From a virus, in IMG/VR virus record IMGVR_UViG_3300042397_002774, positions 32,001 to 96,000 of that record: 64,000 bases of DNA. The stretch is one strand, 5' to 3'. This document shows positions 4,869-64,000 of the stretch, piece by piece. The stretch's first letter is position 1. The number at the start of each line of letters is the position of its first letter. The position numbers and the translations under genes were made by a program. Below the pieces are notes generated by a model, which was given only the letters and a program-made list of their open reading frames with translations, made no database searches and was not told where the DNA came from.

Positions 4869-4871
4869 AAT

Positions 4872-5153: not shown

Positions 5154-6073
5154 TATAATACTTGTTTTTTGATTGTTTCTAATACTTTGGCTATACAAGC
5201 AGCAAAGTTAATTTCTTTATCAGGCACTACGCCTGCTCTCCAGATAAAATCATCTAATATAACTGATAGTTGAGCATCATTTCCATAACTAAATTCGGCT
5301 AAATGCTCAAACATATAGCGATAAGCGGTTTGAAAGTCGTCTACTTGAGCATCAGCTACAAGTTGGCGTACTTGATACCAAGCATTTTTCTCGCGTTTAG
5401 ATAGTATTTGAACCAATTGTTTAGTCCAGTTATCATCTAAAGCGGTAACAACTAATTTACTTTCTTTAATATTAGATTGTAATACTTTAATTACAGAACG
5501 AATATCAGGATAAAACTCATTAATGACTTTAGCTACATCAACCATTTCATATATAATACCTTCAACATCTAAAATATTGATGCAGATATGTTTTGCAACA
5601 GCACCTTTAGTTGGTGGTTTGAGCATATGTAATTCACAACGTGATTGAAGTGGTTCAATTAAACGCTCAACATAGTTACAAGTCAATATAAAACGAGTAT
5701 ATGCTGAATATTCCTCAATTAGATTACGTAATGCTGCTTGAGCGGGTTGAGTTAGGAAATCTGCTTCATCCAATATTACAACCTTAATAGGTTGGAATGA
5801 TGCTGTTGAGGCAAATCCCTTAACTTTATCTCTAATTGTATCAATTCCATTCTCATCGCTAGCGTTGAGGTAAAGATAGTCGCATTGAATGTTTCCCACA
5901 ATTAGTTTAGCTAATGTAGTTTTACCTGTACCTGCGCTGCCAGCGAATATAAAATGGGGTATATCATTCTTAGCAATACAATCAGCAATACGATCTTTAA
6001 CAGCATCGTTACCAATGTATTGTTCTAAGGTCTGTGATCTGTATTTTTCTATCCAGAGTGTGTGTTGTTTCAT
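5153..6073 (-). CDS. Clamp loader AAA+ subunit (T4 gp44/RFC small subunit-like)
   Basis: WIEKYR, Walker A GSAGTGKT, NASD, Walker B ILDEAD, LQSRC motif. Confidence 0.93.
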   Translation of the reverse strand: MKQHTLWIEKYRSQTLEQYIGNDAVKDRIADCIAKNDIPHFIFAGSAGTGKTTLAKLIVGNIQCDYLYLNASDENGIDTIRDKVKGFASTASFQPIKVVILDEADFLTQPAQAALRNLIEEYSAYTRFILTCNYVERLIEPLQSRCELHMLKPPTKGAVAKHICINILDVEGIIYEMVDVAKVINEFYPDIRSVIKVLQSNIKESKLVVTALDDNWTKQLVQILSKREKNAWYQVRQLVADAQVDDFQTAYRYMFEHLAEFSYGNDAQLSVILDDFIWRAGVVPDKEINFAACIAKVLETIKKQVL

Positions 6074-6435
6074 AACTGATTTTGATGTTTAATTACATTG
6101 TTAATGTATGCTTCTATATTTGCCTTACCAACAGGATTTGCAGAATGACAATTCCATTTTGGATAAGGAGTATCGGTTAATAGACAATGTCGTCCTAACC
6201 ATACTGCCGCGTCATAACCACTTTTAGTTTCCTTCTTTTGCTCTCTTGCTTTACGTTTAGACATTCCTGCCTCTACTTTTTCTTTAGCAACATCTTCTCC
6301 CAAATCATGGTCGAATGATACTTCATCAGGAACACCATTTAATCTAATCCACGCTACGAAATCATCGTAGTTACGAACGATAACCCACCCCTCTGTTTGA
6401 GGGGTGCGGATATCGTCTAAGTATAACTTTTTCAT
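6070..6435 (-). CDS. Standalone receiver-like domain (cyclic-phosphate-processing REC type)
   Basis: LYLDDIR, SFDHDLG, KSGYD, HSANPVG motifs. Confidence 0.7.
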   Translation of the reverse strand: MKKLYLDDIRTPQTEGWVIVRNYDDFVAWIRLNGVPDEVSFDHDLGEDVAKEKVEAGMSKRKAREQKKETKSGYDAAVWLGRHCLLTDTPYPKWNCHSANPVGKANIEAYINNVIKHQNQL

Positions 6436-15684: not shown

Positions 15685-16530
15685 TTAAAGTGAATTTATA
15701 TATTCTTGTAATCTATCTTTTGGTTCCCATACTAGCTTTTCTAATGCGGAATCGTTTTCACGTAAAGTTTCTCTGTAGTTTCCTTTTTGATCTGACATGT
15801 ATACTTTTACACAGTTAAATCTTTTAATAAACATATCTGCTACTTCGTTTATAGAATAGTTTTTACCTGTTCCCAATTCCCAAGCATCATTTTGTTTATG
15901 GTATGTTAAACCTATTTTATAAAGACCTTCTACTATATCATCTACATGAGTAAAATCTCTTTTCTGCTTACCATCACCAACAATTGTAATTGGATGATTT
16001 TTCTTAATCTGTCCTCTCCATCTACCTATAACTGCTGCCCAATCTCCTTCAGTAATTTCTTTAGGACCATAAACATTATAAAATCTAACTATTTCAACAT
16101 TTAATTCATAAACCTCTTTATACATTTTACAAATTTCTTCTCCGATGTATTTGTAACATGCATATGGGGATCTATGTGGGTTGTGCCATCGAGAAGATGA
16201 ACCAGCATATATTAATTTAGCACCTATCTGTTTTGCAAAATCACAAACAGCCTGAGTGCCCATTGTATTTACTCTAAAAGTTTCTGATGGATTCTCAAAT
16301 GAGGGTTGTATTCTACTAAGTGCTGCTAAATGGTAGATTATTTTAAAATCTTTATCCATTAATGATATTTGTTCAATATCACCTGAATGGTAATTACAAC
16401 CATTAATTTCGTTCTCTTTTGAGCCGCTATCGTAGTTATCTAAAGATACTACTGTGTGTCCTTCTTTAAGCAATCTTGCTATAAGATTTGAACCAATAAA
16501 TCCTGCTCCTCCAGTTACTAATATTTTCAT
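15685..16530 (-). CDS. NAD-dependent nucleotide-sugar epimerase/dehydratase (extended SDR)
   Basis: VTGGAGFIG, HLAA, YACYK (YxxxK), RFYNVYGP, RDFTHVDD. Confidence 0.92.
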   Translation of the reverse strand: MKILVTGGAGFIGSNLIARLLKEGHTVVSLDNYDSGSKENEINGCNYHSGDIEQISLMDKDFKIIYHLAALSRIQPSFENPSETFRVNTMGTQAVCDFAKQIGAKLIYAGSSSRWHNPHRSPYACYKYIGEEICKMYKEVYELNVEIVRFYNVYGPKEITEGDWAAVIGRWRGQIKKNHPITIVGDGKQKRDFTHVDDIVEGLYKIGLTYHKQNDAWELGTGKNYSINEVADMFIKRFNCVKVYMSDQKGNYRETLRENDSALEKLVWEPKDRLQEYINSL

Positions 16531-16541
16531 AGTTTTAAAAT

Positions 16542-16579
16542 AAAAAACATCTCCCCCATCCATAGACGAGGGAGATGTT
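16542..16579 (-). terminator. Rho-independent terminator
   Basis: AACATCTCCC...GGGAGATGTT stem followed by a T-run on the minus strand. Confidence 0.7.
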
Positions 16580-44389: not shown

Positions 44390-45181
44390 TTAACAAGTTC
44401 CTTCTCCTCCTGAATAACAACACACACAATCACCTGTCCCAGTAGCTGCTAAGGTACAAGCCTCACTAGCTGAAACTGAGCTATAGCATTGGAAATTTGG
44501 ATGAGCTACTAATGAATAAGCTTTAATATAATAATTAGTATTAGCTTGAACAGTAAATGTATAAGATAATGATTGAAGAGTTGATGATGTATTGTTAAAT
44601 GGTTTAAATATTTGTTGATTGCTAATTAAAGTTCCATTAGCAGATACTTCTAAAAAACCAAATCCAGGAGCATCCCACCCATAACTAGCCCCATCAGGAT
44701 TTATTAGTCCAAAATTTGCTTGAACATAAACACTATTTCCTACCCTAACAACTGCATTCATTTGAGGTGAATATTGTGGATTTCCAAAGAACATCCCATC
44801 TAAATTATTAGCAGGATCTAATCTAAGAGCAGATCCATTAACAAAACCAAATAAATCCACATTTTGATAAGGATTTGTCTCTTGACTCATCTCAAATAAT
44901 ACTGAAGATGCTCTTAAAGGATTTAAATAATTCCAATTACAGGTTAGATTAGGAGAAGGTCCAGTAGAAAAATTAACTCCATCTTGAAAACTACTATTAG
45001 GTATAAAAGACCCATCAGGAGAATCTCCAGTGTAAACATGAACTCTATTAGCTACTTCTTGTCGAGTTAAACAACGATTTGTAGCAGGAATAGATTGACC
45101 AGCCTTTAAGCCAAGTAAATTTTCATTTACCATAGCTTGGAGTTCATTTCCTGTTATTTGAAAATTGCTGCTTCTAGCCAT
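44390..45181 (-). CDS. Putative fibre-associated beta-sandwich protein with Cys-rich C-terminus
   Basis: Coupled (TAATG) to the collagen fibre gene. Ends CYSS..AC...CVCCY...C. Confidence 0.55.
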   Translation of the reverse strand: MARSSNFQITGNELQAMVNENLLGLKAGQSIPATNRCLTRQEVANRVHVYTGDSPDGSFIPNSSFQDGVNFSTGPSPNLTCNWNYLNPLRASSVLFEMSQETNPYQNVDLFGFVNGSALRLDPANNLDGMFFGNPQYSPQMNAVVRVGNSVYVQANFGLINPDGASYGWDAPGFGFLEVSANGTLISNQQIFKPFNNTSSTLQSLSYTFTVQANTNYYIKAYSLVAHPNFQCYSSVSASEACTLAATGTGDCVCCYSGGEGTC

Positions 45182-47619
45182 TATTTAGATTCTAATTCTT
45201 TTATTCTAGCTTCTAATTGTTGAATTGCTTTTATTAACACACCTACTGTTGATGGAACATCCATCGTATTTTTCTTTGGAGTAGATAGATCTGATGGAGT
45301 ATCTTCAGCTATAAAACCAATGTGAGGTCTATTGTCTTTATCATCCTTATAATTAAATGACACTACATTAACTTTATTTAATATATCTAAAGCATCACTT
45401 TCATAAGGAATAATATTATACTTTAAATAGCGAGAAGAAATTTGGTAGAATCCTTCAGCTTCAATAGTATTCCCACTTACTCTAATTTGTGAGTTAGTTG
45501 TGGCTCCAGTTGAGGTACCATTGCTAATTAATAAAGCATTATTTGTTGCTGGTGAAATTGCATTAAACCCAGGGCCTGTTGAACCTTGGTCGCCTTTGTC
45601 GCCTTTGAATCCTTGAAAACCTCTATCGCCTTGATCACCTTTAGTTCCTTTATCACCTTGGTCGCCTTTAGTTCCTTTATCACCTTGGTCGCCTTTAGTT
45701 CCTTTATCACCTTGGTCGCCTTTGTCGCCTTTAGTTCCTTTATCACCTTGGTCGCCTTTGTCGCCTTTAGTTCCTTTATCACCTTGGTCGCCTTTATCAC
45801 CCTTATCACCTTTTAAACCTTTATCACCTTGGTCGCCTTTATCACCCTTATCACCTTTTAAACCTATATCACCTTGGTCTCCCTTATCACCCTTATCTCC
45901 TTTAAATCCTTGATCTCCCTTGTCGCCTTTATCGCCTTTAAATCCTTGATCTCCCTTGTCGCCTTTATCACCTTTTAAACCTATATCGCCTTTGAATCCT
46001 TGAAAGCCTCTATCACCTTGGTCGCCTTTATCACCTTTTAAACCTCTATCACCTTGAGGACCAGCTACTGTTGAATTTGCACCTTGAAAGCCTTGGTCGC
46101 CTTTGTCGCCTTTGTCGCCTTTGAATCCTTGGAAGCCTCTATCGCCTTGGTCGCCTTTGTCGCCTTTGAATCCTTGGAAGCCTCTATCGCCTTGGTCGCC
46201 TTTGTCACCTTTGAATCCTTGGAAGCCTTGATCACCCTTATCTCCCTTATCACCTTTAAAGCCTTGGTCGCCTTGATCGCCTTTTAATCCTGTAGCTCCT
46301 TGAAAACCTTGAACTCCATTAGTTCCATTTGTACCTGCAATACCTTGAGGACCTGTAGCTCCTTGCGGTCCTGTATCTCCTCTATCTCCAGTTCTTGCAA
46401 ATGTAACAATTATATCTAAATCATTTGTGAATGAACTTACTCCTGATAACCATGTAATAGGTACTCCAAAATAGTTTGTATTATGGGTGTGGGCTCCAGT
46501 TATTGCAAATAAAGCAAAATTTGTTGTGCTACCTTTTTCAGTTACAGTAAAGTGTCCTTTAATTGCTGATGTTGAGTCATCAACTGTTTGTAAATAATTG
46601 TATACAGAAACACTAGCATCATCTACTTCACTTATATATAATTCTGAAGCTGATGATAATACTAAGTTATTAAATTTTAATTTTCCATTTCCAGGAATTG
46701 TGTTTGAGGTGTTTGTACTAAATGTATAATCAAAAGCAGCACCGCCAAAATTACCTGTTAAACCTTGATGGCCTTGAGGACCTTGTACTCCTTGAATACC
46801 TTGAGCTCCTGTACCTACAGCTCCTTGAATACCTTGTGGGCCTTGGTTACCTTGAGGACCAGGAATTATAGAATCATTACCTACATGACCTTGAATACCT
46901 TGAACACCAACAGGGCCTTGGATACCTTGATCACCTATAGGACCTTGATGACCTTGATCACCTTTAGCTCCTTGGTCGCCTTTTATACCTATACTACCTT
47001 GTATACCAACAGGACCTTGATCTCCTTGATCACCTTTAAACCCTTGGTCACCTTTAGTACCTTGCACACCTATACTTCCTTGCACACCAACGGGACCTTG
47101 TACACCTTGATCGCCTTTAAATCCTTGATCGCCTTTTGATCCTTGAACACCTATGCTTCCTTGTACACCGATTGGACCTTGAATACCTTGATCACCTATA
47201 CTTCCTTGATCACCTTTTACTCCTATACTTCCTTGTGCACCAATACTTCCTTGTGCACCAACCCCACCTTGAAATCCTACTGGGCCTTGAAGACCTGTAG
47301 GGCCTTGATGACCTTGGTCGCCTTTTGACCCTTGAACTCCATTTGAACCTTGTACACCTTGAGCCCCATGATCACCTTGATCACCTTTAGTACCTTGTAT
47401 ACCAATACTACCTTGAACACCAACAGGGCCTTGAAGACCTTGAGATCCTGTTGTTCCTTGAGGTCCTTGTGCACCTACAGTTCCTTGGATACCTTGAGCT
47501 CCTTGAGCACCATTTGATATTGTAATTTGATTTATACTACCACTCAATTCGGTCCAGTTATCATCCATTTCCTGCCAAGTAAGTGGACGTAAGAGGTTTG
47601 ATCTTAAAGATAAAGCCAT
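45181..47619 (-). CDS. Collagen-like tail fibre with C-terminal S74 intramolecular chaperone
   Basis: Two long Gly-X-Y tracts, then SSRYLK...GFIAED...LIKAIQQL. Confidence 0.88.
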   Translation of the reverse strand: MALSLRSNLLRPLTWQEMDDNWTELSGSINQITISNGAQGAQGIQGTVGAQGPQGTTGSQGLQGPVGVQGSIGIQGTKGDQGDHGAQGVQGSNGVQGSKGDQGHQGPTGLQGPVGFQGGVGAQGSIGAQGSIGVKGDQGSIGDQGIQGPIGVQGSIGVQGSKGDQGFKGDQGVQGPVGVQGSIGVQGTKGDQGFKGDQGDQGPVGIQGSIGIKGDQGAKGDQGHQGPIGDQGIQGPVGVQGIQGHVGNDSIIPGPQGNQGPQGIQGAVGTGAQGIQGVQGPQGHQGLTGNFGGAAFDYTFSTNTSNTIPGNGKLKFNNLVLSSASELYISEVDDASVSVYNYLQTVDDSTSAIKGHFTVTEKGSTTNFALFAITGAHTHNTNYFGVPITWLSGVSSFTNDLDIIVTFARTGDRGDTGPQGATGPQGIAGTNGTNGVQGFQGATGLKGDQGDQGFKGDKGDKGDQGFQGFKGDKGDQGDRGFQGFKGDKGDQGDRGFQGFKGDKGDKGDQGFQGANSTVAGPQGDRGLKGDKGDQGDRGFQGFKGDIGLKGDKGDKGDQGFKGDKGDKGDQGFKGDKGDKGDQGDIGLKGDKGDKGDQGDKGLKGDKGDKGDQGDKGTKGDKGDQGDKGTKGDKGDQGDKGTKGDQGDKGTKGDQGDKGTKGDQGDRGFQGFKGDKGDQGSTGPGFNAISPATNNALLISNGTSTGATTNSQIRVSGNTIEAEGFYQISSRYLKYNIIPYESDALDILNKVNVVSFNYKDDKDNRPHIGFIAEDTPSDLSTPKKNTMDVPSTVGVLIKAIQQLEARIKELESK
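45570..46390. repeat. Collagen Gly-X-Y 9-bp periodic repeat (GDK/GDQ/GFK-rich), approximate bounds
   Basis: ccttggtcg/cctttatca-type units. Confidence 0.85.
46760..47511. repeat. Collagen Gly-X-Y repeat (GxQ/GPx-rich), approximate bounds
   Basis: Translation GAQGIQGPVG... Confidence 0.85.
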
Positions 47620-47650
47620 AATTATTTTTTAATTTGTCACGTATAAATAT

Positions 47651-47677
47651 GAAAGGGGATGATTGCTCACCCCCTTC
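47651..47677 (-). terminator. Probable terminator
   Basis: GAAGGGGGTGA-GCAA-TCATCCCCTTTC hairpin, just before the late motif at 47642-47649. Confidence 0.6.
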
Positions 47678-47701
47678 TAAAAATATATATTAATATTTTA
47701 A

Positions 47702-48166
47702 TTAACAGTCTTCGTAGCTACCAGTACCGAATACTTCAGCAACTTTTTCTTTCAATTTAGCATAACCAAATTCAAAGATATTTGCTTCTTCTACTTCAGT
47801 AAAATCTGGAATCATTACAGTAACGCTTTCAGAAACTGTAGTTTCTACGTTAGTATAAGTAATACTTCCTGATGCATCTACACTTTGAGAAGGTACATTT
47901 ACTGTTCTGTAAACAACACTTTCAGATGGAACTCTTAAATCAACATATAAGTTATCACCAATTTGTTGGTTACGAGCTATTGTTCCCATTCCTCCAGGAC
48001 CTGGGTACAAATTAGATGCTGATGTTGCTGATTCTGCGTCTAAAAATAATTGAGTTTGAAAATTAGCAAATCCACCTTTCTGAATTTGGTAATTTGTAAT
48101 ACGAAGGTATGCTTCGCTTGTGATACCTAAATCAGTACCAATTTGAGTTGTAATTCTAATTGCCAT
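47702..48166 (-). CDS. Hypothetical fibre-associated protein
   Basis: MAIRITTQIGTDLG...AYLRI...FGYAKLK. Late motif at 48190-48197. Confidence 0.55.
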   Translation of the reverse strand: MAIRITTQIGTDLGITSEAYLRITNYQIQKGGFANFQTQLFLDAESATSASNLYPGPGGMGTIARNQQIGDNLYVDLRVPSESVVYRTVNVPSQSVDASGSITYTNVETTVSESVTVMIPDFTEVEEANIFEFGYAKLKEKVAEVFGTGSYEDC

Positions 48167-48197
48167 TGTTGTATAGTTGTTTTTACGTGAATAAATA

Positions 48198-48788
48198 TTA
48201 GCGATAATGTTCTCCCCCAAGCCATAATACAAAAGATCTACGAGTTCCTACAGTTACTGGTGAAACGCGGTGCATCATATATGAAGGAAATATAACTACT
48301 GTGCCTCTGCCACGAGGAGCTGTGATATGCCCTTTACCTCCTTGCCAAATATCTAAATCTCCACCCTCATATTCGCTAGGATCGGATAATTGGACCGTAA
48401 TAGACACTTTACGGAGCGATAACATCCCAGGCCCAATGTCTTGATGCCAGATGTAATGCCCTCCTTCTGAAGCGTAGTATTCAGTGTATTGTATTTGTTC
48501 TGGGGCTGAATGTAGGTCAAAATCCCATAAAGATTTATTAGCTTCAGCAGCCATATCCATTAATTTACCATATAGCCAATTCCATTTCATATTTTGTGGA
48601 ATCCATTTAATAGATGATGAGCGAGCTTCTTTATTATCACCACCAATTGTGGTAGCTTGAACAAAGTCAATCTCAGCAACATCTTTGTAAATTTTGTCTA
48701 GTTCTTCATTATTAAAACCTTTATCAAAATAATAATAATTTTGAAGATCAACGTGTTTTTTAGAAAATAAATAGCCTGTTTGTACCAT
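48198..48788 (-). CDS. 2OG-Fe(II) oxygenase (prolyl-hydroxylase/PKHD type)
   Basis: WHQD, RKVS, YEGGDL, FPSY..HRV.PV..GTR.S (HxD...H...R). Confidence 0.92.
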   Translation of the reverse strand: MVQTGYLFSKKHVDLQNYYYFDKGFNNEELDKIYKDVAEIDFVQATTIGGDNKEARSSSIKWIPQNMKWNWLYGKLMDMAAEANKSLWDFDLHSAPEQIQYTEYYASEGGHYIWHQDIGPGMLSLRKVSITVQLSDPSEYEGGDLDIWQGGKGHITAPRGRGTVVIFPSYMMHRVSPVTVGTRRSFVLWLGGEHYR

Positions 48789-48797
48789 TTTTATATT

Positions 48798-49370
48798 TTA
48801 TTCTGTTTCGAAAATATTCATTTTACTTGAGTATGGCTCTTCAGCCCATAAATTTATAGCAATTGCTCTTCTAGTTCCTGTTAAAACAGTATCAACTCTA
48901 TGAGGCACTTTTCCAGCATCGAAAATAATTAAACGATTTGGCCTACACAATATAATATCAGGAGAGTTAGATTCACCATCAGTATAAACATTTAATGCAC
49001 CTCCAGTAAATTCTGATCCTATTGGATAGTATACACATCCAATTGTAGGTGTCATTCTATCTCCTGTAGCTTTTCTATATGCAACATCATCATCATAATG
49101 CATTTCTAGATAATTTCTAAATCTCCCATTAGGATCTGCTTCTTGAACACCTGTCCAATATTCAAATCCATCAATTGTATATAGTTTATTAAGTGGGCAA
49201 TTATTTCGCCAAATATATTCTATTAACTTCTTTTTAACAGTGTTTACTTCATCATTCCACCACCCTTTCCAATAATAATACACACCAGGATCTTGAAAGA
49301 AAGTGGTATCATTTGTAATCTCATCTAATAATGTTTGATCTGTTATAAAATCATCAAATACTGTTATCAT
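48798..49370 (-). CDS. 2OG-Fe(II) oxygenase
   Basis: MHYD, GCVYY, TGGAL, NRLIIFD..PHRV...GTR. Confidence 0.88.
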   Translation of the reverse strand: MITVFDDFITDQTLLDEITNDTTFFQDPGVYYYWKGWWNDEVNTVKKKLIEYIWRNNCPLNKLYTIDGFEYWTGVQEADPNGRFRNYLEMHYDDDVAYRKATGDRMTPTIGCVYYPIGSEFTGGALNVYTDGESNSPDIILCRPNRLIIFDAGKVPHRVDTVLTGTRRAIAINLWAEEPYSSKMNIFETE

Positions 49371-49374
49371 TTTG

Positions 49375-51198
49375 TTATTGTTGTGGGTTATAAATATAAT
49401 TTACATATCCTTCATCTTTACCAAATCTACTTTCAACCCATAGTGGATGTGATGGATTTTCTTTGTAAGCCCAATCTTCTTTTCCTAATTCTTCAAAACG
49501 TTTAGCTATTCTTTCGTTGTAATGATACATAATTGTTCTTACTCTACGTTGAATATCTGCACGAGATAAATCATGGGTATTTTGACCTGTATGGTTGTTG
49601 TAAATGAATTGGATGTAACCAATTTTATTTATTTTACAAATTTTGGTGTGTAAAAATGTTCTAACTATTAATTCATAATCATCAGCAATCGCTAAATCTC
49701 TATTATGTCCACCAACAGCAAAATATGTATCTCTTCTCCAAGCACGAACGTGATTTGGAACACCAACAATATGTCTGATTGTTTTAGGGTTAATGTTTTG
49801 TGTAATTACAACATCCCATTCAAATCCTCTATATTTTTCTTTTCTATATTTACCATATCCAAAAGCAAATCCATCATCATATGTTAACGATTCCCAATTT
49901 TCATCTATTTCTACACTATCATTAAAGAAGAAACCAGCATCTGGGTGTGCTATTGAAGCATTGATTAGATCCATTGTACAATTGTCTGTTAATAAATCAT
50001 CATGATCTAATTCTGCTAATAAGAATCCTCTTGTTAAACAAGCGGCTCTGTATTTTGATTCTCCAATAATACCTCCTGTTTTTTCTCTAAAATCATATAC
50101 TTTTACTCTTGGATCTCGTTTAGCAATTTCTTCTGCTATTTTAAGTGTTTTACCACCATCAGATGAATCGTTAACCATTACCCATTCCCAATCTTGATAA
50201 GTTTGTTCAAGCAGTGAACGATAAGTATTCCATAATTTATTTCCAGTATTATATATTGGTGTAAAATATGATACTAAATGTTCATTTGATGCTGTTAGCA
50301 TTTGATTCATAGCTACATTGTAAGCTATATCTCCATTTTCAACATCATCTTTTTCAACATTTAACCATTTTTTTCTTACCTCTAAAGGTTGATTAGTTAA
50401 ATTAGTAAATTCTGAAAAATGTTTTCCAATAGTGATAATTGAATCTGGTTTAAAAGATGTTAATAGTTCTTCTATATTGTAATCATTTGAAATATTTAAT
50501 ACATCTAAACTTACGTCTTCATATCCTAAATGTTTAGTACTTTCTAATTTTGCTGTACCACCTACATAAAGTACTTTAGGTACTCTTGCTTTTTTCTCTT
50601 TTGTTAAGTAATTGTAATAACAAAGTTCTGAATGAATAAAATGAAATTTATCTGAAAATTGTTTATATAGATTTTCAATAAATACACCATCACCACAATA
50701 TCCACCTTCATATCTACCTTGTGTATATAAACTTTGTTTGATAACATATTGAGCGGAGTCTATGTGTCTTAGCTTCATATGTTCAGGGCCTACTTTTCTA
50801 ACATCTAGGCCTGTAAAATCCTTCTTATTAACAAACTGCTCATAAACAAAAGCATCTTTATCAGGATTAGATTCAATTTCTGATTTGATAGTATTATAGA
50901 AGTCAGGATGGACAATATTATCATCATCCAATATTACTATATAAGTGTCTTTATGTAATTTATCAATAATATCACTTAATTGAGGATACAAATAATCAGA
51001 TCCATCTCCTTTTATAAAGTGAAATCTAGTATTTGGACTTTGTAACTCATTCAACATTTCAGCATCAATGTCTTTTAATGTTGTTGTATCAAAGATAATA
51101 TGCCAAACTACATTTATCGGACTTGGAAATACCGATTTTTTTATTGTCAATAAGTTTTGCTGACGCGTACAACGCGTTAATATATGTAATGTTACCAT
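49375..51198 (-). CDS. Glycosyltransferase with two GT2 (GT-A) domains
   Basis: N-terminal domain ILTRCTR...LDDDN. C-terminal domain FTPIYNT, WEWVMVND, ELDHDD, ADDYEL. Confidence 0.88.
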   Translation of the reverse strand: MVTLHILTRCTRQQNLLTIKKSVFPSPINVVWHIIFDTTTLKDIDAEMLNELQSPNTRFHFIKGDGSDYLYPQLSDIIDKLHKDTYIVILDDDNIVHPDFYNTIKSEIESNPDKDAFVYEQFVNKKDFTGLDVRKVGPEHMKLRHIDSAQYVIKQSLYTQGRYEGGYCGDGVFIENLYKQFSDKFHFIHSELCYYNYLTKEKKARVPKVLYVGGTAKLESTKHLGYEDVSLDVLNISNDYNIEELLTSFKPDSIITIGKHFSEFTNLTNQPLEVRKKWLNVEKDDVENGDIAYNVAMNQMLTASNEHLVSYFTPIYNTGNKLWNTYRSLLEQTYQDWEWVMVNDSSDGGKTLKIAEEIAKRDPRVKVYDFREKTGGIIGESKYRAACLTRGFLLAELDHDDLLTDNCTMDLINASIAHPDAGFFFNDSVEIDENWESLTYDDGFAFGYGKYRKEKYRGFEWDVVITQNINPKTIRHIVGVPNHVRAWRRDTYFAVGGHNRDLAIADDYELIVRTFLHTKICKINKIGYIQFIYNNHTGQNTHDLSRADIQRRVRTIMYHYNERIAKRFEELGKEDWAYKENPSHPLWVESRFGKDEGYVNYIYNPQQ

Positions 51199-52127
51199 TC
51201 TACGTCAAAGAAAAATAGGTGAAAGAATCTTGCATTTTCGATTGCATCTCCAAAATAACCTGTTGCTGCGTGGATTGTTTTTGAATCAAACATAACCAAT
51301 CTATTATAAACGTTTGCAACAGTATCTACTACTTCATATGTTGTTGAATCATAAAAATTCATATTGTTACTTAGCCCTTTGAAGGTATTAAAATAATCAT
51401 CACCTCTTGTTTCATCAAACCTAGTAGCACCTGTAATTTTGCTTTTATATGTGGCTGTACCTGTTTGAAGTGGGGCATCTGGTGTTAAGTACACCATTGC
51501 TGCATATGTTTGAGAATCAACATGGTAAACGATTGGATCTTGAGAAGTACAATATTGGAAAACACCATTTGCATATGATTCATAATTCCAATTTGTAATT
51601 TTTTTACCTAAAATTTCTTCAAATTTTTCTTTAGTACCATTTAAGATAAATCTGTCGTAACTACGTTTTCCTTTATGATAACCTGATTCTTTAAATTCTA
51701 AATTATTCATAGCATAATTTCTAACCCAATCAGGGTCACTATAGAAATTATCTACTACAACAATACCTTTTTTAGATACAGGGTCAAACCCTGAATGGTA
51801 AACTACCCATTTTTCAAATGTGTCTATGTTATTTACAACAGAGTTGTCTTGTAAGATAAGACTAACAGGTTTATTTAATTCCTGTTTTGTAAGAAGGATT
51901 TTAAATCCAATTTCTTCTGTTGGAATTTGAGGATAAAATTCCTTCACATCTGGTCTTGATTCAAATCCAGGAGAAATAATTTCCTCACCAATTAGAAATG
52001 CTTTAATAGGTTGTATTGGGTGAGATATCCACCCACTAATAGTACAAACATCGTTATTAATGACAACTTTGTCAATGTACCACAATACACCATCAACGTT
52101 GGTTAAATGATTAATATGATCGGCCAT
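51192..52127 (-). CDS. 2OG-Fe(II) oxygenase (DUF6445-like) with N-terminal beta-sandwich domain
   Basis: VVDNFYSDP, YHVD, AAMVYL, GT, NRLVMFD..IHA...R. N-terminal ISGW...RPDV...GF domain. Confidence 0.82.
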   Translation of the reverse strand: MADHINHLTNVDGVLWYIDKVVINNDVCTISGWISHPIQPIKAFLIGEEIISPGFESRPDVKEFYPQIPTEEIGFKILLTKQELNKPVSLILQDNSVVNNIDTFEKWVVYHSGFDPVSKKGIVVVDNFYSDPDWVRNYAMNNLEFKESGYHKGKRSYDRFILNGTKEKFEEILGKKITNWNYESYANGVFQYCTSQDPIVYHVDSQTYAAMVYLTPDAPLQTGTATYKSKITGATRFDETRGDDYFNTFKGLSNNMNFYDSTTYEVVDTVANVYNRLVMFDSKTIHAATGYFGDAIENARFFHLFFFDVEW

Positions 52128-52144
52128 AAAAGTAATTATTTTAT

Positions 52145-52176
52145 GGAATATACGATGAAACTATTTGATATCCAAA
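52145..52176 (-). promoter_or_regulatory. Bacteroidota-type promoter heading the oxygenase/GT operon
   Basis: TTTG-N20-TATATTCC, with ATTTG-GATAT-CAAAT dyad. Confidence 0.62.
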
Positions 52177-52177
52177 T

Positions 52178-55100
52178 TTATTTATTATCTACTAGATAAT
52201 TTATTTGATTTTTTAGATCTTCGATTTGTTGTTGTTGTTCTTTCATACCCTCTACTAACAAAGCTACAAGTTTTTCATACTTAATAGTCTTGTATGTTTC
52301 AGACATTTCTGGTATAAAATCTTTAGCTTCATCTGGGTCATTACTCGGAGTATTTAATTGTGATTGATACTCAGTAATAAATAAAGGTTCTACAGCTTCA
52401 ACTTCTTGTGCAATAAGACCAATATCTTTAGTACCTGCTCTTTCTTTTACAATGTTTACTTTTTCATCATTCCATGTATAAGTAACACCTCTAAGTTGTT
52501 TAATTTTATTTATTGCATTATCAATTGTAATAATATCTTTCTTAAGTCTAGCATCTGAGTAATAGGCAATAACATCACCTGTTGCATATAAAGTACCTGT
52601 TATAACTACACCATCACTAGCTGTTCTAAATTTTTCATTACCGTTATTGTATAGGTATTGAGCAGCATCTACATATGTAAGTATTGACCAGTTATTTAAC
52701 CAAAATCCTGTAGGCCCAGACGCACCATTTGTATGCATCATTAGACACATACCACCATCTACTCTCCAACCAGAATATCCGTTATTACTACCACCCATAT
52801 ACCATGAAGTATATGAACTTGTATTTCTATGTAAGTATTTATTATTATCATTATAATCATAAAAGGTTCCAGCATACATTCCAGCACCTGTTAACCAGTT
52901 ACCAGAATCATCACACCAAGATCCCCAACTACTTGATTGATTTAAGAAACCAATTCGATTTGAGTTACAATGAAGTTCTCTAGTACCTTCATCACTATCA
53001 GTCATATAAATTGATGATGCATTTGTACCTAATCCTACAGTTAGATTACCATACATGTATGAATGTCTAGATGAATCTAATCTAATACCCCAAGAACCAG
53101 CATTATTTAGTATTCCAACATTATTACCTGTATCAGCATAAAAGCATCCTCTAACAGCACTACCATAACCACCAGGTCTCATATTAAGCTGTATCCAAGA
53201 ACCATTAGATGTAGCAAAATTCCACTCACCAGTAGATGATGCATAAAAATGGGTATCAAGGGCGGTGTTATATAAACCTGAGCCAGAATTCTGATTTCTA
53301 AACCAACCATTATTGTATACGTTTGCAAATGTTGGACCACTATCGGTTCTAACTTCTTGGTTCATATTTGCAGCATTTGGATCTGACGCTGTGTTTAATA
53401 ATCTTCTCCAAGAAGTCCATGAAGTTCTACCATGGTTTGCTTCAGACCTAACCCAAAGATTTGTTCCAGTTCCACCATCATAATGTCCACCAAGTTGATA
53501 CATATTATAACCATTGTAACCAGACCATGTAATAACATGATTCCAACCACCACTACCTGTATAACTAGGGTGCATAAAATCAACTCTTAATCCTCCACCT
53601 GCTAAACCTTGATCTACTAAATTAACAGGAGTTTCAGAAGTTAAATAACTACCATATTCATAATAAGCTCTAAGATATTGACCGCTTGTGTCTTTTCTTG
53701 AAAAAGAAGATGCGTGTAAACTATCTACTGTATCTGCATTTGATACAGATTGAGATCCTATATTGCCAGAGTCAATTACATCATGCCAAGTACCAGAACC
53801 TCTATATTGCTTAAATCTACCTTCTGCCCAAAAGTTACCACCACCATTAGCATAGTAATCACCGTTTGTAATAATGCGGTAGTTAGTATTAATAGCCTGA
53901 CCAACACTTAAATAATCAGCATGTATGTGGTATACTCTAGAAGTACTATTTGGGTCTACATAATATCCTGTATCTTGTTTATCATAAAATATATTAGCAC
54001 GGATATCATTTGTGTTAATCTGGCTTCCATCATTAACTGTTAATTGAGCATTAAAATAGAAGTTTGATCTATCAGTATATATATGAGCATGACCGCTATT
54101 AGCTGGTCCAAACCAAATATAACCGGAGTCCGTATAAAATCTTACACCCCATGTACCGTCTCCAGTAAATCTTCCACTGTTTGTTGAAGTGCCAAATCTA
54201 ACTGTATGTAATACAGATGTACCATTAGGATCTGCATAATAAGCTGTGTCTTGTGAATCATAAAATATAGGAGCTCTTACAGAATCTACACCTTGCAAAT
54301 AATTTGCATAAGCATAACCTACAATATTACCATTAACCATAAAAGCTAATGGGTGGTTGGAATAAGTACCTATTCTACCAACTCCTTGACCTGTATGAGA
54401 ATACATTGTAGTAATAATTCCATCACTATTACTTTTAACATCAAGTCTAGCATGACTAGAACCTGTTAAATTTAATCTAGCATTCCATCCTCCATCATTA
54501 GATGCATTTACATCACCCACAGAAAGATGTCTTAACCAGGAAGTGCTTGCAAAATCTCCATAATATGTACTATCATTTCCATCATAAATTATATTAGCAT
54601 ATATAGTACCAGCATATGTTGTAGAATCTAAATAAATTGTATTTCCTACAGGATTTAATCTTAATGCTTGTCCTGAATGAGATTGGACATAGGAATATGA
54701 ACCATTATTACCTATTGATATTGTAAAGTTATTTACACTACCTGGGTTTGTAGTGCCTCTTAAAAATCTACTATCAGCATCTGATGTGCTATATGTGTAT
54801 GAAGTATAGTTACCTGAATGTAATAATGTTCTTGATGTTGATCCATCATAAAAAGCTCCTCCACCATATATATATGTACTACCAGTTCCTTTAATATATG
54901 TACCTAACCCACTGTTACCATTGTACCCAAAAGAATCAGACTGGCCAGAAAAGTTAATTGCTGTACCACTAGATACTGTGGTAATAATACCAGACATAGT
55001 ACCTCCAGAAAGAGGCAATGCATATGATGAATAGTTACCTGCGTGTAATACTATATTACCATTGTATGTCATATTCCCAGTATTGGGAATAATAAAATCT

Positions 55101-56569
55101 GTACCACCTGTAGTAGTAATACGCATTCTGTTACCAGATTGCATTCTAAACCAACTATCAGTACCATCAAAATCTATTAATGCACGACCTATTGTAGCAC
55201 TTGTACTAAATGTAACAGCTGTAGATGTACTAGCCCCTCTAGCAGTAACAGTAGCTAATGTATCAACATAAACATTTGGACCTGCTGCACCTTGTGCACC
55301 AGTATTACCTTGAGGACCTGCTACTGATGAAGCAGCACCAGTATTACCTTGTGCACCAGTAGCGCCTTGTGCACCCGTTGCACCTTGGGCTCCATTTGAA
55401 CCATTAGTTCCGTTTGTACCAGCTGTGCCTTGTAAGCCTGTCGCTCCTTGAGCTCCATTAGTACCATTAGTTCCGTTTGTACCAGCTGTGCCTTGGTCGC
55501 CTTTAAAGCCTTGGAAGCCTCTGTCACCTTGGTCTCCTTTGAATCCTCTGTCGCCTTGATCGCCTTTGAAGCCTTGAAAGCCTCTATCGCCTTGAAAACC
55601 TTGAGATCCTTTATCACCTTGAGAACCTTGACGTCCTTGATCGCCTTGAGCGCCTTGTCTTCCTTGATCACCTTGGAAACCTTGGAAACCCCTAACTCCC
55701 TGATCGCCTTGAAAGCCTCTAGGGCCTTGATCGCCTTGATTTCCTTGAGAACCAGTTGCACCTTGTGCACCAGTACTACCTTGAGCACCTGTAGAACCTT
55801 GGATACCTTGAACAGACATATCTGTTGTAAATGACCAAGTTCCTCCACTACGTAAATACAATTTACCATAGTCAGGATCTGATTGTGAAAGTGAGCCTCC
55901 TACTAATCCGAATTGACCTTCGGGGCAAGTATTGTCTGCTAATAATGCAGCTACTGAGTTGTATGTTTGATAGATTGTGAATCCTTGGCCTGTTATGCCT
56001 TGATAACCTTGGTCGCCTTTAGCACCTTGAGGTCCTGTAGAACCTTGTGCACCGACTGTGCCTTGAATGCCTTGTGGGCCTTGATTTCCTTGATCACCTT
56101 TAGCACCTTGGAAACCTTGATCGCCTTGGTCACCCTTAGCGCCCTGAATGCCTTGATCGCCTTGATATCCCTGATCGCCTTGGAAGCCTTGTATTCCTTG
56201 GTCACCTTGGGCTCCTTGAATGCCTTGGTCGCCTTGGAAACCTTGGTCGCCTTGAAAGCCTTGATCACCTTTAGTACCCTGAATGCCTTGAAATCCTTGG
56301 TCACCCTTAGTGCCTTGACGTCCCTGATCACCTTGAGCTCCATCAGCTCCAACATAACCATCTTGTCCTTGAAAACCTTGGATGCCTTGTGGGCCTTGTG
56401 GACCTTGGTTACCCTGTGATCCTCTTGAAGTATAGTATATCTCCTTAGTACTTTCATTAAGTACTAAATATTTGTCTAATGAACCTGATGTGTCTTGGGG
56501 AACTACAGGTAGTCTAAAACTACCTGATACTTCTAATGAACCTGTAACTGACGCGTTGTGTATTCTCAT
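52178..56569 (-). CDS. Long tail fibre with collagen domains, repeated fibre modules and S74 chaperone
   Basis: Gly-X-Y tracts, repeats like IFYDxxDTxYYxDPNxTS, YSDARLK...GLIAQEV...YEKLVALLVEG. Confidence 0.88.
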   Translation of the reverse strand: MRIHNASVTGSLEVSGSFRLPVVPQDTSGSLDKYLVLNESTKEIYYTSRGSQGNQGPQGPQGIQGFQGQDGYVGADGAQGDQGRQGTKGDQGFQGIQGTKGDQGFQGDQGFQGDQGIQGAQGDQGIQGFQGDQGYQGDQGIQGAKGDQGDQGFQGAKGDQGNQGPQGIQGTVGAQGSTGPQGAKGDQGYQGITGQGFTIYQTYNSVAALLADNTCPEGQFGLVGGSLSQSDPDYGKLYLRSGGTWSFTTDMSVQGIQGSTGAQGSTGAQGATGSQGNQGDQGPRGFQGDQGVRGFQGFQGDQGRQGAQGDQGRQGSQGDKGSQGFQGDRGFQGFKGDQGDRGFKGDQGDRGFQGFKGDQGTAGTNGTNGTNGAQGATGLQGTAGTNGTNGSNGAQGATGAQGATGAQGNTGAASSVAGPQGNTGAQGAAGPNVYVDTLATVTARGASTSTAVTFSTSATIGRALIDFDGTDSWFRMQSGNRMRITTTGGTDFIIPNTGNMTYNGNIVLHAGNYSSYALPLSGGTMSGIITTVSSGTAINFSGQSDSFGYNGNSGLGTYIKGTGSTYIYGGGAFYDGSTSRTLLHSGNYTSYTYSTSDADSRFLRGTTNPGSVNNFTISIGNNGSYSYVQSHSGQALRLNPVGNTIYLDSTTYAGTIYANIIYDGNDSTYYGDFASTSWLRHLSVGDVNASNDGGWNARLNLTGSSHARLDVKSNSDGIITTMYSHTGQGVGRIGTYSNHPLAFMVNGNIVGYAYANYLQGVDSVRAPIFYDSQDTAYYADPNGTSVLHTVRFGTSTNSGRFTGDGTWGVRFYTDSGYIWFGPANSGHAHIYTDRSNFYFNAQLTVNDGSQINTNDIRANIFYDKQDTGYYVDPNSTSRVYHIHADYLSVGQAINTNYRIITNGDYYANGGGNFWAEGRFKQYRGSGTWHDVIDSGNIGSQSVSNADTVDSLHASSFSRKDTSGQYLRAYYEYGSYLTSETPVNLVDQGLAGGGLRVDFMHPSYTGSGGWNHVITWSGYNGYNMYQLGGHYDGGTGTNLWVRSEANHGRTSWTSWRRLLNTASDPNAANMNQEVRTDSGPTFANVYNNGWFRNQNSGSGLYNTALDTHFYASSTGEWNFATSNGSWIQLNMRPGGYGSAVRGCFYADTGNNVGILNNAGSWGIRLDSSRHSYMYGNLTVGLGTNASSIYMTDSDEGTRELHCNSNRIGFLNQSSSWGSWCDDSGNWLTGAGMYAGTFYDYNDNNKYLHRNTSSYTSWYMGGSNNGYSGWRVDGGMCLMMHTNGASGPTGFWLNNWSILTYVDAAQYLYNNGNEKFRTASDGVVITGTLYATGDVIAYYSDARLKKDIITIDNAINKIKQLRGVTYTWNDEKVNIVKERAGTKDIGLIAQEVEAVEPLFITEYQSQLNTPSNDPDEAKDFIPEMSETYKTIKYEKLVALLVEGMKEQQQQIEDLKNQINYLVDNK
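55280..56422. repeat. Collagen Gly-X-Y repeats (two tracts split by a ~60 aa domain), approximate bounds
   Basis: GDQGFQ/GAQ/GFK units. Confidence 0.85.
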
Positions 56570-62067: not shown

Positions 62068-63999
62068 TTATCTATTTATAAGTTGTTTTACTAAATCTTT
62101 AAGTTCTTCTATTTCTGTCTTTTGAGATTCGATTTGTGTTTGTTGTTCTTTAATTGCTTCGATTAATAGACCTACCATATTACCATAGGCTACTGAATAC
62201 ATACCTGTGTTGTGATCTTGGTGTACTACTTCTGGTAGTACTTCTAAAACTTCTTGAGCTAATACCCCTGCACGTCTAATATTTCTTTCATCTTCTTCTG
62301 AATCCATTTTTGTGTAGGTAACTCCTCTAATAGCTTGAACTTTTTCTACGGCATTTGTGATAACTTCAACATTATCTTTTACTCTTGCATCTGAAAAGGC
62401 GGTGATATCCCCACCTGCTAAAATTGAACCATTTCCTTGATCAAATCTTATTTTTTCATATGCTGTTCTATTACCACTAGATCTAGAAGGTACAGTAAAA
62501 CTTCTAAGCTGACCAGTACTACTTTCAGAAGTTACACAAAAATAGTTATTTGGATTATCATGATATAATCCCCATCCTGTATAAGGTTCAAAATCTACAA
62601 ATATACCTGTCCATCCTTCACCAGTTACTTGTTGCATACCAAATGCAGCCCCTGCAGATGAGGTTCCAGAAGAATTTAATAACAATCCTGGTTGGTTATA
62701 TGTTGTTGCGTTTAATGAGTAAGGTGTGCTAATACCACTACCTAATGTTACATATCCTGAAATGCTATGATCTCCAGAGGCATTAATTTGCCATCTATAA
62801 CCACTACCACTACCATCATTTTTATATACATAAAAATTACCATCTCTACCAACTACTTCCCATTTATTATTTGCTGAGGCGTCCTGGAATTGTATAATAT
62901 TTCCTGATCCTCTTAAATACATTACTCTTGATGAGCCATCATTTGTAAGTATTAGATTCGGAGCAGCAATATAACTATTTACATTAAAACTTGCTAGGTT
63001 TTCCCAAGTTACATTTCTTGTAAAATCTATTTTAAGAGCACGTGTCCAAGTACCTGCTTGTCCTATTCTTAAATTAAATGCATCGTTGCTTACCCCATCA
63101 TAATATAAATTCCAACCCCACCCACCAGCTGAGCTATTAATTGATGGGTCCCCGGTGCTATTTGCAAAATCTACAGCATATAAATGAGCTTCACCATTAT
63201 TATCACAAGATATTACAGCTCCATGCTTTCTACCTGATGAATAATCATGAACCCATAATGAAGTTCTATCTATTCCTGAACCATATGGTATTAGGTTAGA
63301 ACTATAAGTAGAAGGGTTTTCAGTTGCTAAAATACTTCTTGCTCCTAATAAACCATTATGGTTTAATCTCATCTTAATTGTAGACCAATCAGTACTACCA
63401 TTTCTACTTGTATACCACTCATGTGAATGGTCTTCTGAAGCTGTACCAGATCTCCAATGACCAGAATAGTAACGCATATCGTTACCGTATGTTCTTATTA
63501 CACCAACATAATTATCTTCAATACCTAATTCTAAAGAAGGGTAACCACTAAACCCTCTTACTTGCACCCCAATAACAGTACTTCTTCCAGAAGCTCCACC
63601 ATCACCCGCTGTTAATATAATATTATTAGTTGTGTTAGTAATATATCCAGGACCGTTTGTAAGTTGGTTTAAGTTAGTTAAATTACCTGCATGCCAAACA
63701 GTATTCCCATTTACATTTAAACTTACATATGCACGTATTTCATCAGATTTAAAACCCATTACTTTAGTCCACCCTGATGTGTAAATTCCAAATGCTCTAG
63801 CTGAATCAAAATGTATACCCATTCCATATCTACCAAATACACCTTCTGATGAACTAGCTTTAATAATACCTTCATCCCATCCTGTACTATATGGTCCAAA
63901 TCTAATTCTTGGCCATTCTACAGTATCTGTATTAGTTAGATTAAATGTAACAAGCCCAGTAAATGTACCACCTCCTAGAGGCATTGCGTATGAACTATA
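62068..63999 (-). CDS. Tail fibre with S74 chaperone (N-terminus lies beyond the window end)
   Basis: Frame is open past 63984 to the window edge. FSDARVK...GVLAQEV...[16 protein letters not shown]. Confidence 0.85.
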
Positions 64000-64000
64000 G

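Follow-up and report, generated by a model that had tools for sequence, protein, structure and literature searches.

The virus record IMGVR_UViG_3300042397_002774 of IMG/VR raises the question of whether a bacteriophage modifies its own collagen-like fibres. The record comprises 160,926 bp and is judged to be 94% complete. Its bases 32001-96000 form the window, namely the whole stretch of 64,000 nucleotides that we analyzed. At 48198-52127 on the minus strand of the window, a block of four genes encodes three 2-oxoglutarate (2OG)/Fe(II) oxygenases (P0004, P0002 and P0001) and a glycosyltransferase with two GT-A domains (P0003), and this block sits among five fibre genes with collagen-like (Gly-X-Y) repeats and Peptidase_S74 domains. 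An earlier interpretation of the DNA letters (hereafter, the sequence-only reading) proposed that Lys at Y (Y-Lys), and perhaps Pro at X (X-Pro), of these repeats is hydroxylated and that the two glycosyltransferase domains then add a disaccharide. In our analysis, the pair of P0004, which belongs to the DUF6445 family, and P0003 recurs beside collagen genes in phages and in bacterial chromosomes. The module is real, apparently undescribed and collagen-linked, and it is more general than the sequence-only reading held. On balance, the block appears to be an island for fibre modification that acts on the collagen-like part of fibres made by the phage itself. Dedicated enzymes for modifying prokaryotic collagens probably exist, and these would not use the lysine-based chemistry first proposed.

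Linkage of the oxygenase-glycosyltransferase pair to collagen genes

The strongest evidence is given by bacterial chromosomes, and only these loci separate adjacency to collagen from adjacency to fibres. DUF6445 relatives were found at 59 genome loci, of which 28 have a GT2 resembling the C-terminal domain of P0003 and 26 have an open reading frame (ORF) with collagen repeats within 8 kb. The bacterial loci span Gammaproteobacteria, Actinomycetota, Acidobacteriota and Bacteroidota (Thiothrix/Thiolinea, Acidimicrobiaceae, Mycobacterium, Streptomyces, Vicinamibacterales and Balneola). The DUF6445 proteins of Thiothrix/Thiolinea align over the full length at 38-45% identity. In Thiolinea, the island is located between dnaE and rnhB/lpxB. 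Its neighbouring protein consists of 76% Gly-X-Y (Collagen family, E 1.5e-58), and its GT2 shows 31% identity to residues 310-581 of P0003 (E 5e-30), the motif ELDHDDLLT being common to both. A handful of collagen loci per genome was counted in the five bacterial genomes checked (3-8 Mb). Thus, chance adjacency would amount to a few per cent at most. Furthermore, since chromosomes have no phage hotspot, the bacterial trio of DUF6445, GT2 and collagen genes shows that the adjacency in phages is not merely that of a fibre-region hotspot.

The trio is present at L259 (a Thiolinea metagenome-assembled genome), L261 (Thiothrix eikelboomii ATCC 49788), L272, L285 and L299. Its carriers include Streptomyces isolates (L299 and L283). 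The bacterial GT2 is approximately 430 amino acids (aa) long and bears a C-terminal methyltransferase-like region. The bacterial collagens have up to 605 triplets and are nearly without Pro and Lys, and the contigs often end inside the repeat.

For the phages, 80 IMG/VR loci with relatives of the glycosyltransferase (54-98% identity) were fetched. Clustering at 90% identity gave 41 clusters, and 21 of these have at least 8 kb on both flanks. Thirteen clusters of the P0002 family without the glycosyltransferase served as the control. Among the 80 loci, a collagen ORF occurs near the DUF6445-glycosyltransferase pair, usually directly upstream, in at least six rearranged layouts. The pair with collagen was observed in two genome contexts, namely the fibre/sheath module and the edge of a DnaJ-PhoH-RNaseHII block. 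With full flanks, collagen was detected within 10 kb in 17 of the 21 glycosyltransferase clusters and within 2 kb in 11, compared with two and none of the 13 control clusters, respectively (Fisher p 3e-4 and 2e-3; these values are rough, the clusters being related). DUF6445 adjoins the glycosyltransferase in 32 of the 41 clusters. Collagen was nearby in 14 of 15 full-flank clusters in which DUF6445 is present, versus three of six in which it is absent. In addition, 17 of the 18 whole records that bear the glycosyltransferase contain collagen somewhere. The co-occurrence with collagen fibres that the sequence-only reading expected of the whole operon is thus found for the DUF6445-glycosyltransferase pair in phages and bacteria and for the P0001 type in phages (see below), and not for the P0002 family.

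The related islands swap in additional glycosyltransferases, methyltransferases, a sulfotransferase and an adenosine 5'-phosphosulfate (APS) kinase. By analogy, this swapping would fit the behaviour of glycan-tailoring islands, and the APS kinase and sulfotransferase hint at sulfated glycans. The islands of L022, L076 and L041 add an APS kinase, a sulfotransferase, two 2OG-FeII_Oxy_5 oxygenases and a 700-aa GT1, together with three tandem paralogues of an unknown 320-aa protein. The accessory proteins c3 and c13 showed no relation to DUF6445 in a profile comparison.

Enzymes, fibres and transcription signals

The four genes in the order oxygenase, glycosyltransferase, oxygenase and oxygenase were described by the sequence-only reading, and family matches and alignments agree with this description; all of the catalytic motifs are intact. 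P0004 matches Pfam PF20043 over residues 202-288 (gathering cut-off, 24 bits). It is composed of an N-terminal beta domain (residues 1-110) and a C-terminal double-stranded beta-helix (residues 115-311). H202, D204, H286 and R300 are invariant in 42 relatives. In the AlphaFold2 (AF2) model (predicted local distance difference test (pLDDT) score, 94), the iron triad and the 2OG-binding Arg are placed on the double-stranded beta-helix, as in a 2OG-Fe(II) oxygenase. The N-terminal residues 1-110 are confidently modelled and beta-rich; they are kept from the phages to Thiothrix and are swapped or lost in many relatives.

The folds similar to the C-terminal domain of P0004 were ranked by VIA-align, as Foldseek gave generic matches only (E ~1e-4). 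The closest were protein prolyl hydroxylases, including OGFOD1 (Z 14.0), a PHD (13.2), P. putida prolyl 4-hydroxylase (P4H; 12.6), the EF-Tu hydroxylase (12.6), Tpa1 (12.6), PhyA (11.9) and PBCV-1 vCPH (11.5), with oxygenases of small molecules and sugars ranked in between. The lysyl hydroxylases L230 (10.6) and LH3 (10.1) ranked under the prolyl hydroxylases (12-14), and AlkB-type enzymes are distant neighbours (~10). No match for P0004 or P0002 was obtained in a sequence search of the PDB, and neither Pfam nor the PDB sequences gave a match to PLOD. A representative library contains 1433 DUF6445 relatives, and the protein atlas gave DUF6445 clusters only, mostly viral. Elsewhere, DUF6445 is fused to GT2, TPR, GT17, GT47-like and FkbM-methyltransferase domains. 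The fusions with glycosyltransferases follow the same hydroxylase-glycosyltransferase logic as LH3 and L230. Like the gene swapping in related islands, the fusions fit an island that builds variable glycans. In this phage, the genes of P0004 and P0003 overlap by 7 nucleotides at the P0004 stop codon, and this overlap suggests coupled translation. The score of a predicted P0003-P0004 complex was 0.00, which says nothing either way.

P0003 possesses two GT-A domains (residues 1-210 and 304-595) with an alpha/beta linker between them (model pLDDT, 83.5). The GT2 match covers residues 312-440 (cut-off, 23.3 bits). The N-terminal domain has no Pfam match, and its predicted fold is GT-A (GlcAT-P, Z 16.4; also KfiA). 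The closest folds to the C-terminal domain were PmHS2 (Z 21.9), SpsA (Z 20.3), TarS/TarP and protein GalNAc-transferases. K4CP aligned with P0003 over its full length (Z 23.0; 425 residues over 1-591). In contrast, LH3 gave Z 11.9 over 1-541 with a root-mean-square deviation of 21, the P0003 domains being folded together, and no Pfam match to a GT25 or PLOD glycosyltransferase domain was detected in P0003. As judged from the model, P0003 resembles the bifunctional two-domain polymerases (K4CP and PmHS2) more than LH3. D91-D92-D93 and D398-H-D400-D401 are invariant in 20 relatives. Thus, both domains look catalytic, which fits two sugar transfers. The disaccharide transfer of the sequence-only reading is consistent with these motifs, and the Lys acceptor is unsupported.

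The P0003 family has 2392 matches in a clustered protein search and occurs on 399 viral contigs. In NCBIfam, nothing was obtained at the curated cut-off, and the weak matches were all polysaccharide enzymes. DNA and protein searches revealed no close relative among isolate phages; the best isolate match, Synechococcus phage S-CRM01, shows 32% identity to the C-terminal domain of P0003 only. In one relative (L006/L010), two overlapping ORFs (4630-6346) stand in place of a single gene for the double glycosyltransferase, through either a frameshift or an assembly error. A sister lineage (L102, L103 and L110) has a glycosyltransferase of 583-588 aa with 63-65% identity to residues 204-605 of P0003. 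Its N-terminal region (~185 aa) is unrelated to that of P0003, so that the N-terminal domain has been swapped.

The other two oxygenases are of the P4H type. P0001 matches PDB PKHD hydroxylases (E 3e-7), and H115, D117, H173 and R183 are invariant in its family, as are H91, D93, H157 and R167 in that of P0002; both have the residues of a 2OG-Fe(II) oxygenase. The P0001 family occurs on at least 541 contigs. Among the 14 clusters of this family without the glycosyltransferase, collagen was detected within 10 kb in 11 and within 2 kb in eight. In many lineages, the relatives are located directly 3' of collagen genes, and the nearest collagen is often rich in Gly-Pro-Thr/Gln. P0001 is linked to collagen genes independently of the glycosyltransferase.

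As for P0002, its relatives with 53-78% identity are flanked by the genes of the UvsX recombinase and DnaB helicase in T4-like phages or adjoin those of the DNA end protector and portal, and no collagen is nearby at such loci (L119, L107 and L145). This points to another role, outside collagen, for most of the P0002 family. The sequence-only reading had assigned all three oxygenases to collagen. The collagen neighbourhood agrees with this assignment for P0004 and P0001, and the replication modules of the P0002 family do not. P0002 stands beside the glycosyltransferase in two lineages only, both with Lys-rich collagen (the second is L102 and L103). In the close relatives L004, L006, L012 and L016, a GT2-like gene takes the place of P0002. 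The association of P0002 with Lys is a lead for Lys, nothing more.

Five collagen fibres are encoded in a row in a module of ~27 kb (genome 77-104 kb) with 649 triplets in total. The enzymes lie between P0005 and P0006, and a third fibre follows at P0007, as the sequence-only reading described; the Collagen and Peptidase_S74 domains confirm these fibres (Table 1). The fourth fibre is a 1622-aa open frame with 134 triplets (genome 94071-98936) and the fifth is a 1807-aa open frame with 203 triplets (genome 98995-104415). In P0005, Y is Gln in 77 and Lys in 53 triplets (Lys is ~30% of Y), and X is Asp in 66 and Pro in 16. P0007 has no Lys, nine Pro at X and nine Thr at Y. Over the whole genome, Lys was counted 92 times at Y and never at X, and Pro 60 times at X and once at Y. 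Thus, the sequence-only reading gave these positions correctly. Lys at Y and Pro at X are ordinary triple-helix propensities, so that the positional bias is not a sign of modification. P0005 and P0006 are candidate substrates.

Table 1. Positions of the enzyme genes, fibre genes and other features in the window
Feature	Position	Strand	Description	Evidence
Epimerase gene	15685-16563	-	NDP-sugar (nucleoside diphosphate sugar) epimerase/dehydratase, NAD-dependent	PF01370 E 2e-48; GDP_Man_Dehyd E 2e-39
P0005	45181-47619	-	fibre, 812 aa, 172 Gly-X-Y triplets, C-terminal Peptidase_S74	Collagen E 5e-82
Hairpin	47652-47677	-	terminator-like, after P0008	11-pair stem, 5 G-C, T-rich tail; consensus match only
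P0008	47702-48232	-	no known family, 176 aa from TTG or 154 aa from ATG at 48166	
P0001	48198-48788	-	P4H/PKHD-type 2OG oxygenase, 196 aa	PF13640 51.5 bits; phrog_61
P0002	48798-49370	-	P4H-type 2OG oxygenase, 190 aa, accessory	PF13640 29.5 bits (marginal; cut-off 27)
P0003	49375-51198	-	soluble double GT-A glycosyltransferase, 607 aa, core of module	GT2 (PF00535) 73.2 bits
P0004	51192-52127	-	2OG-Fe(II) oxygenase, DUF6445, 311 aa, core of module	Pfam PF20043 49 bits
P0006	52178-56569	-	fibre, 1463 aa, 102 triplets, Peptidase_S74, directly upstream of enzymes	Collagen E 2e-47
P0007	58706-62005	-	fibre, 1099 aa, 38 triplets, Peptidase_S74	Collagen E 4e-15
Fourth fibre	62068-64000	-	C-terminal part (638 aa, Peptidase_S74), runs past window end	

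All genes of the region are carried by the minus strand and are ordered in the direction of transcription as P0006, P0004, P0003, P0002, P0001, P0008, the hairpin and P0005. P0008 gave no Pfam, PHROG or NCBIfam match. Its homologues adjoin collagen ORFs, on either side of the enzyme pair, in the close relatives and in the more distant L063, L084 and L085, and P0008 may assist the fibres as an accessory protein or in their assembly. No similarity was detected between P0008 and the 165-aa gene product encoded between the collagen gene and the GT2 gene in Thiolinea. The hairpin, judged by its sequence, likely ends the transcription unit that contains the enzyme block.

The sequence ATATTTATA is found ~20 nucleotides upstream of the starts of three fibre genes, a 126-aa gene and the sheath gene (sites before 47619, 56569, 57029, 62005 and 42309 on the minus strand). 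It is absent before P0004. From its positions, ATATTTATA is a candidate late-promoter element, in accordance with the late motif that the sequence-only reading placed before the flanking fibre genes. In that reading, the enzyme block had a host-type promoter of its own, and the enzymes could be made before their substrates. The promoter (52174-52147, TGGATA-16-TATATT) has nine of 12 matches, which is at chance level: 84 such matches occur in the region, compared with 90.9 +/- 8.2 in shuffled sequence. In addition, no terminator-like site was found between P0006 and P0004, so that the enzyme block may equally well be transcribed by read-through from the fibre promoter or from an early start of its own. 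Thus, the genes, motifs, fibres and Lys/Pro positions seen in the sequence-only reading stand, the promoter does not, and the early timing of the enzymes is unsupported.

The phage is contractile-tailed and has a genome of ~32% GC, which encodes GroEL, a family-B polymerase, ribonucleotide reductase and a tail sheath. A 7-deazaguanine cluster containing QueC is also present. The epimerase in Table 1 is a possible supplier of the sugar donor, its tie to the island being a conjecture. Two GT1-type (GT-B) glycosyltransferase genes are located in the replication region at 56-2817 of the window (minus strand), distant from the fibre island. A further GT2-like ORF is present outside the window at genome 29608-30174.

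Target residue and alternative explanations

The collagens beside the core pair differ widely in composition. In the phages, X-Pro accounts for 3-55% and Y-Lys for 0-27%, and 13 of the 32 clusters with collagen have no Lys at Y. In the five bacteria, X is occupied by Ala/Ser/Thr and Y by Gln/Thr/Asn, and the shares of Pro and Lys do not exceed 6% and 5%, respectively. Thr occurs at Y in every neighbouring collagen (4-50% in the phages and 18-36% in the bacteria). On the glycosyltransferase tree, the collagen composition flips often (6 and 5 changes), whereas the enzyme pair is retained. Thus, neither Lys nor Pro is a general substrate of DUF6445 and the glycosyltransferase, and neither the Y-Lys target of the sequence-only reading nor a general targeting of X-Pro by the core pair is supported. 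Either the target of DUF6445 is a different residue or the glycan, or the enzyme has different specificities in different lineages.

In the mechanism that we infer, from collagen as the substrate to the reaction order, target residues and sugars, the core would consist of the DUF6445-type oxygenase P0004 and a dedicated GT2-type glycosyltransferase, with a second, N-terminal GT-A domain in this phage. No membrane segments were predicted in the five non-fibre proteins (P0001, P0002, P0003, P0004 and P0008). Since the enzymes are predicted to be soluble in this way, they would act on the fibre chains in the cytoplasm, probably while the C-terminal S74 chaperone has yet to zip up the trimer. The glycan attached by P0003 would be built by two types of sugar transfer, as a disaccharide or as a repeating chain like those of the two-domain polymerases; the evidence leans towards glycosylation of the collagen-like fibres by P0003. 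The proposed role of P0001 is hydroxylation of the collagen chain, with Pro at X as the likeliest site, and the chances that this enzyme is a collagen prolyl hydroxylase are evenly balanced. DUF6445 would hydroxylate a residue of the tract that is neither Lys nor Pro, or the attached glycan. That it makes the attachment site for the glycan on the protein is possible, although short of an even chance, and that it tailors the glycan seems unlikely. Hydroxylation of Y-Lys in this phage by any of the three oxygenases is quite unlikely.

These parts could be joined in an old bacterial and phage system for collagen maturation, in which DUF6445 and GT2 act on Gly-X-Y without Pro and Lys. The chemistry of such a system would be unlike that of any known modification of collagen. 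For example, Y-Gln (or another residue) would be hydroxylated and then glycosylated, or a Thr-linked glycan would be tailored oxidatively. The N-terminal GT-A domain would extend a glycosaminoglycan-like chain, possibly sulfated as in the relatives, and proteoglycan-like tail fibres would result. The joint picture is tentative and, taken whole, somewhat doubtful.

Several points weigh against collagen as the substrate. Despite the presence of the glycosyltransferase, no collagen was detected within 10 kb in L020, L081, L088 and L090, and one glycosyltransferase-bearing record of 145 kb gave three weak collagen matches only. Nearly all large fibres in these phages are collagenous, and the phage data cannot separate a position by collagen from a position by fibres. 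The P0004 folds also include oxygenases of sugars and small molecules (HalB, Z 12.8; AviO1, 11.6; HygX, 11.1), and the nearest folds to P0003, being polysaccharide polymerases, would also fit synthesis of a free polysaccharide. Only Gln and Thr at Y are universal among the neighbouring collagens. Glycosylation of Thr needs no hydroxylase, and no residue that requires hydroxylation is common to all of these collagens. X-Pro was higher in the collagens near P0001-like genes (median 34% versus 10% without them; p 0.003), and this correlation was dropped as evidence because it corresponds to two changes on the glycosyltransferase tree, namely one or two independent contrasts. The case is computational and is built wholly from gene context and fold.

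Among the alternatives, the one that survives best is the animal/mimivirus-type pathway, in which Y-Lys is hydroxylated and the two glycosyltransferase domains add a disaccharide to hydroxylysine. The strict restriction of Lys to Y in this genome, its share of Y in P0005 and the Asp motifs kept in both glycosyltransferase domains agree with this pathway. Moreover, close relatives keep P0002 when the downstream collagen is rich in Asp and Lys (Y-Lys 26-35%), and P0002 is replaced by the GT2-like gene beside Pro/Asn-rich collagen (Y-Lys 2-6%); the second lineage, L102 and L103, likewise joins P0002, the glycosyltransferase and a Lys-rich collagen. However, the association of P0002 with Lys is that of two lineages, and most of its family belongs to replication modules without collagen. 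Asp at X with Lys at Y is the usual charge-pair stabilization of bacterial triple helices, so that Lys needs no further explanation. In addition, the core pair stands beside the Lys-free or Lys-poor collagens described above, no PLOD-type domain was found, and the lysyl hydroxylases L230 and LH3 are poorer fold matches to P0004 than the top prolyl hydroxylase. We consider this pathway improbable.

Alternatively, the island might remodel the host envelope or make a free polysaccharide, for superinfection exclusion or serotype change, and the fibre region would be a hotspot for accessory genes. The similarity of P0003 in fold to capsule and glycosaminoglycan polymerases (K4CP, PmHS2 and also hyaluronan synthases), the weak NCBIfam matches, the sulfotransferase and APS kinase of related islands and the fusions of DUF6445 to sugar-tailoring domains are in line with such a role. 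A study of SAR11 myophages reads the glycosyltransferases of host-recognition clusters likewise (PMC7029224). However, the same pair stands beside collagen-like genes in chromosomes of four bacterial phyla, where there is no phage hotspot. Furthermore, the island lacks flippases, exporters and membrane segments, and the P0001 family follows collagen even without the glycosyltransferase. The chance of this explanation is slim.

A similarly slim chance is given to the explanation that only the glycosyltransferase acts on the fibres, at Thr/Ser in a BclA-like manner, and that the oxygenases are general phage genes for the hydroxylation of small molecules or host proteins, for example ribosomal proteins or translation factors. 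The Thr at Y of all neighbouring collagens could be glycosylated without a hydroxylase, P0002 relatives occur in replication modules, and DUF6445 is closest in fold to OGFOD1 and Tpa1, which hydroxylate ribosomal proteins, and to the EF-Tu hydroxylase. In aquatic viruses, P4HA-type genes rank with the most common accessory genes, and their role was called "cryptic" (PMC9301287). In contrast, the linkage of DUF6445 to collagen is as tight as that of the glycosyltransferase (see the full-flank clusters above), and DUF6445 is part of the bacterial trio. P0001 relatives lie directly after collagen genes in many lineages, and the P0004 and P0003 genes overlap.

Hypermodification of the phage DNA by base hydroxylation followed by glycosylation is rejected: according to a preprint (bioRxiv 10.1101/2023.12.21.572611), phage TET/JBP-type oxygenases act in this way with glycosyltransferases, and AlkB-type enzymes are distant fold neighbours of P0004, but no TET/JBP match was obtained, all of the oxygenases being P4H-like or DUF6445, the genes belong to the fibre operon, bacteria have the trio with collagen as well, and the genome already has its QueC-containing 7-deazaguanine cluster.

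If collagen is the substrate of the island, an abundant viral class of P4H-type genes would gain a concrete role, DUF6445 would be assigned a function, and enzymatic maturation of collagen would extend beyond animals and giant viruses. Glycan-coated fibres would then be a factor in host range, stability or shielding. The enzymes may also be of use for producing modified recombinant collagens in bacteria.

Comparison with known systems

Literature searches revealed no described phage case of collagen modification and no paper on DUF6445; the sequence-only reading had likewise known of no characterized bacteriophage example. The virome study cited above reports that viral P4HA genes are abundant and mentions collagen tail fibres. 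Phage collagen-like proteins are usually described as unmodified, and so, according to a review, are most prokaryotic collagens, the known exceptions being the glycosylation of BclA and a Bacillus P4H; this bacterial (B. anthracis) P4H is active in vitro on Pro-Pro-Gly peptides (PMC8968730). Mycobacteriophage glycosyltransferases decorate the virion proteins of their own phages (Freeman et al. 2023, cited in PMC12619734). As outlined in the citing article, the targets in that case are the C-termini of capsid and tail-tube proteins, and neither a collagen tract nor an oxygenase takes part.

In Bacillus, the exosporium protein BclA is a Gly-X-Thr-rich prokaryotic collagen that is O-glycosylated, with glycans linked to Thr, by enzymes encoded nearby, which is similar to the arrangement proposed here. 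In contrast, the BclA glycosylation locus has no oxygenase, and its families appear to differ from the GT2 and DUF6445 of this island. The pair described here spans phages and four bacterial phyla.

The two-GT-A order and fold of P0003 are shared with K4CP, the chondroitin polymerase of E. coli K4, with PmHS2, the heparosan synthase 2 of Pasteurella, and with LARGE1. These enzymes show 10-20% identity and belong to a capsule context, whereas P0003 is encoded in a fibre operon with oxygenases, and polymerization by P0003 is conjectural. In the Skp1 pathway (PhyA, Gnt1 and the two-domain PgtA), a cytoplasmic P4H is followed by a bifunctional two-domain glycosyltransferase that acts on hydroxyproline. 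PhyA and vCPH of the chlorovirus PBCV-1 are soluble P4H-type enzymes like those of the island, and both are fold neighbours of P0004 (see above). However, their substrates are a single Pro of Skp1 or Pro-rich repeats, and the sequences are not closely related. The animal collagen P4H (C-P4H) uses Y-position Pro, whereas Pro in the fibres of this phage is at X.

In animals, LH3/PLOD3 and GLT25D1/COLGALT1 perform hydroxylation and then two sugar transfers on unfolded Gly-X-Y, as would the enzymes of this phage. COLGALT1 has two GT-A-like lobes (PMC12003778, PMC11897130). In contrast to the animal enzymes, no GT25/PLOD domain is found here, and both Asp motifs of P0003 are invariant.

The mimivirus L230, a fusion of a lysyl hydroxylase and a glucosyltransferase, and the glucosyltransferase R699 are also a virus-encoded 2OG oxygenase and GT-A enzyme for the virus's own collagen (PMC9546862), and they work outside the secretory pathway, as is proposed for P0004 and P0003. 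L230 is a PLOD-type fusion protein with Lys as its target. In contrast, the oxygenases of this phage are of the DUF6445 and P4H types, are encoded by genes separate from that of the glycosyltransferase, and would function in a bacterial host.

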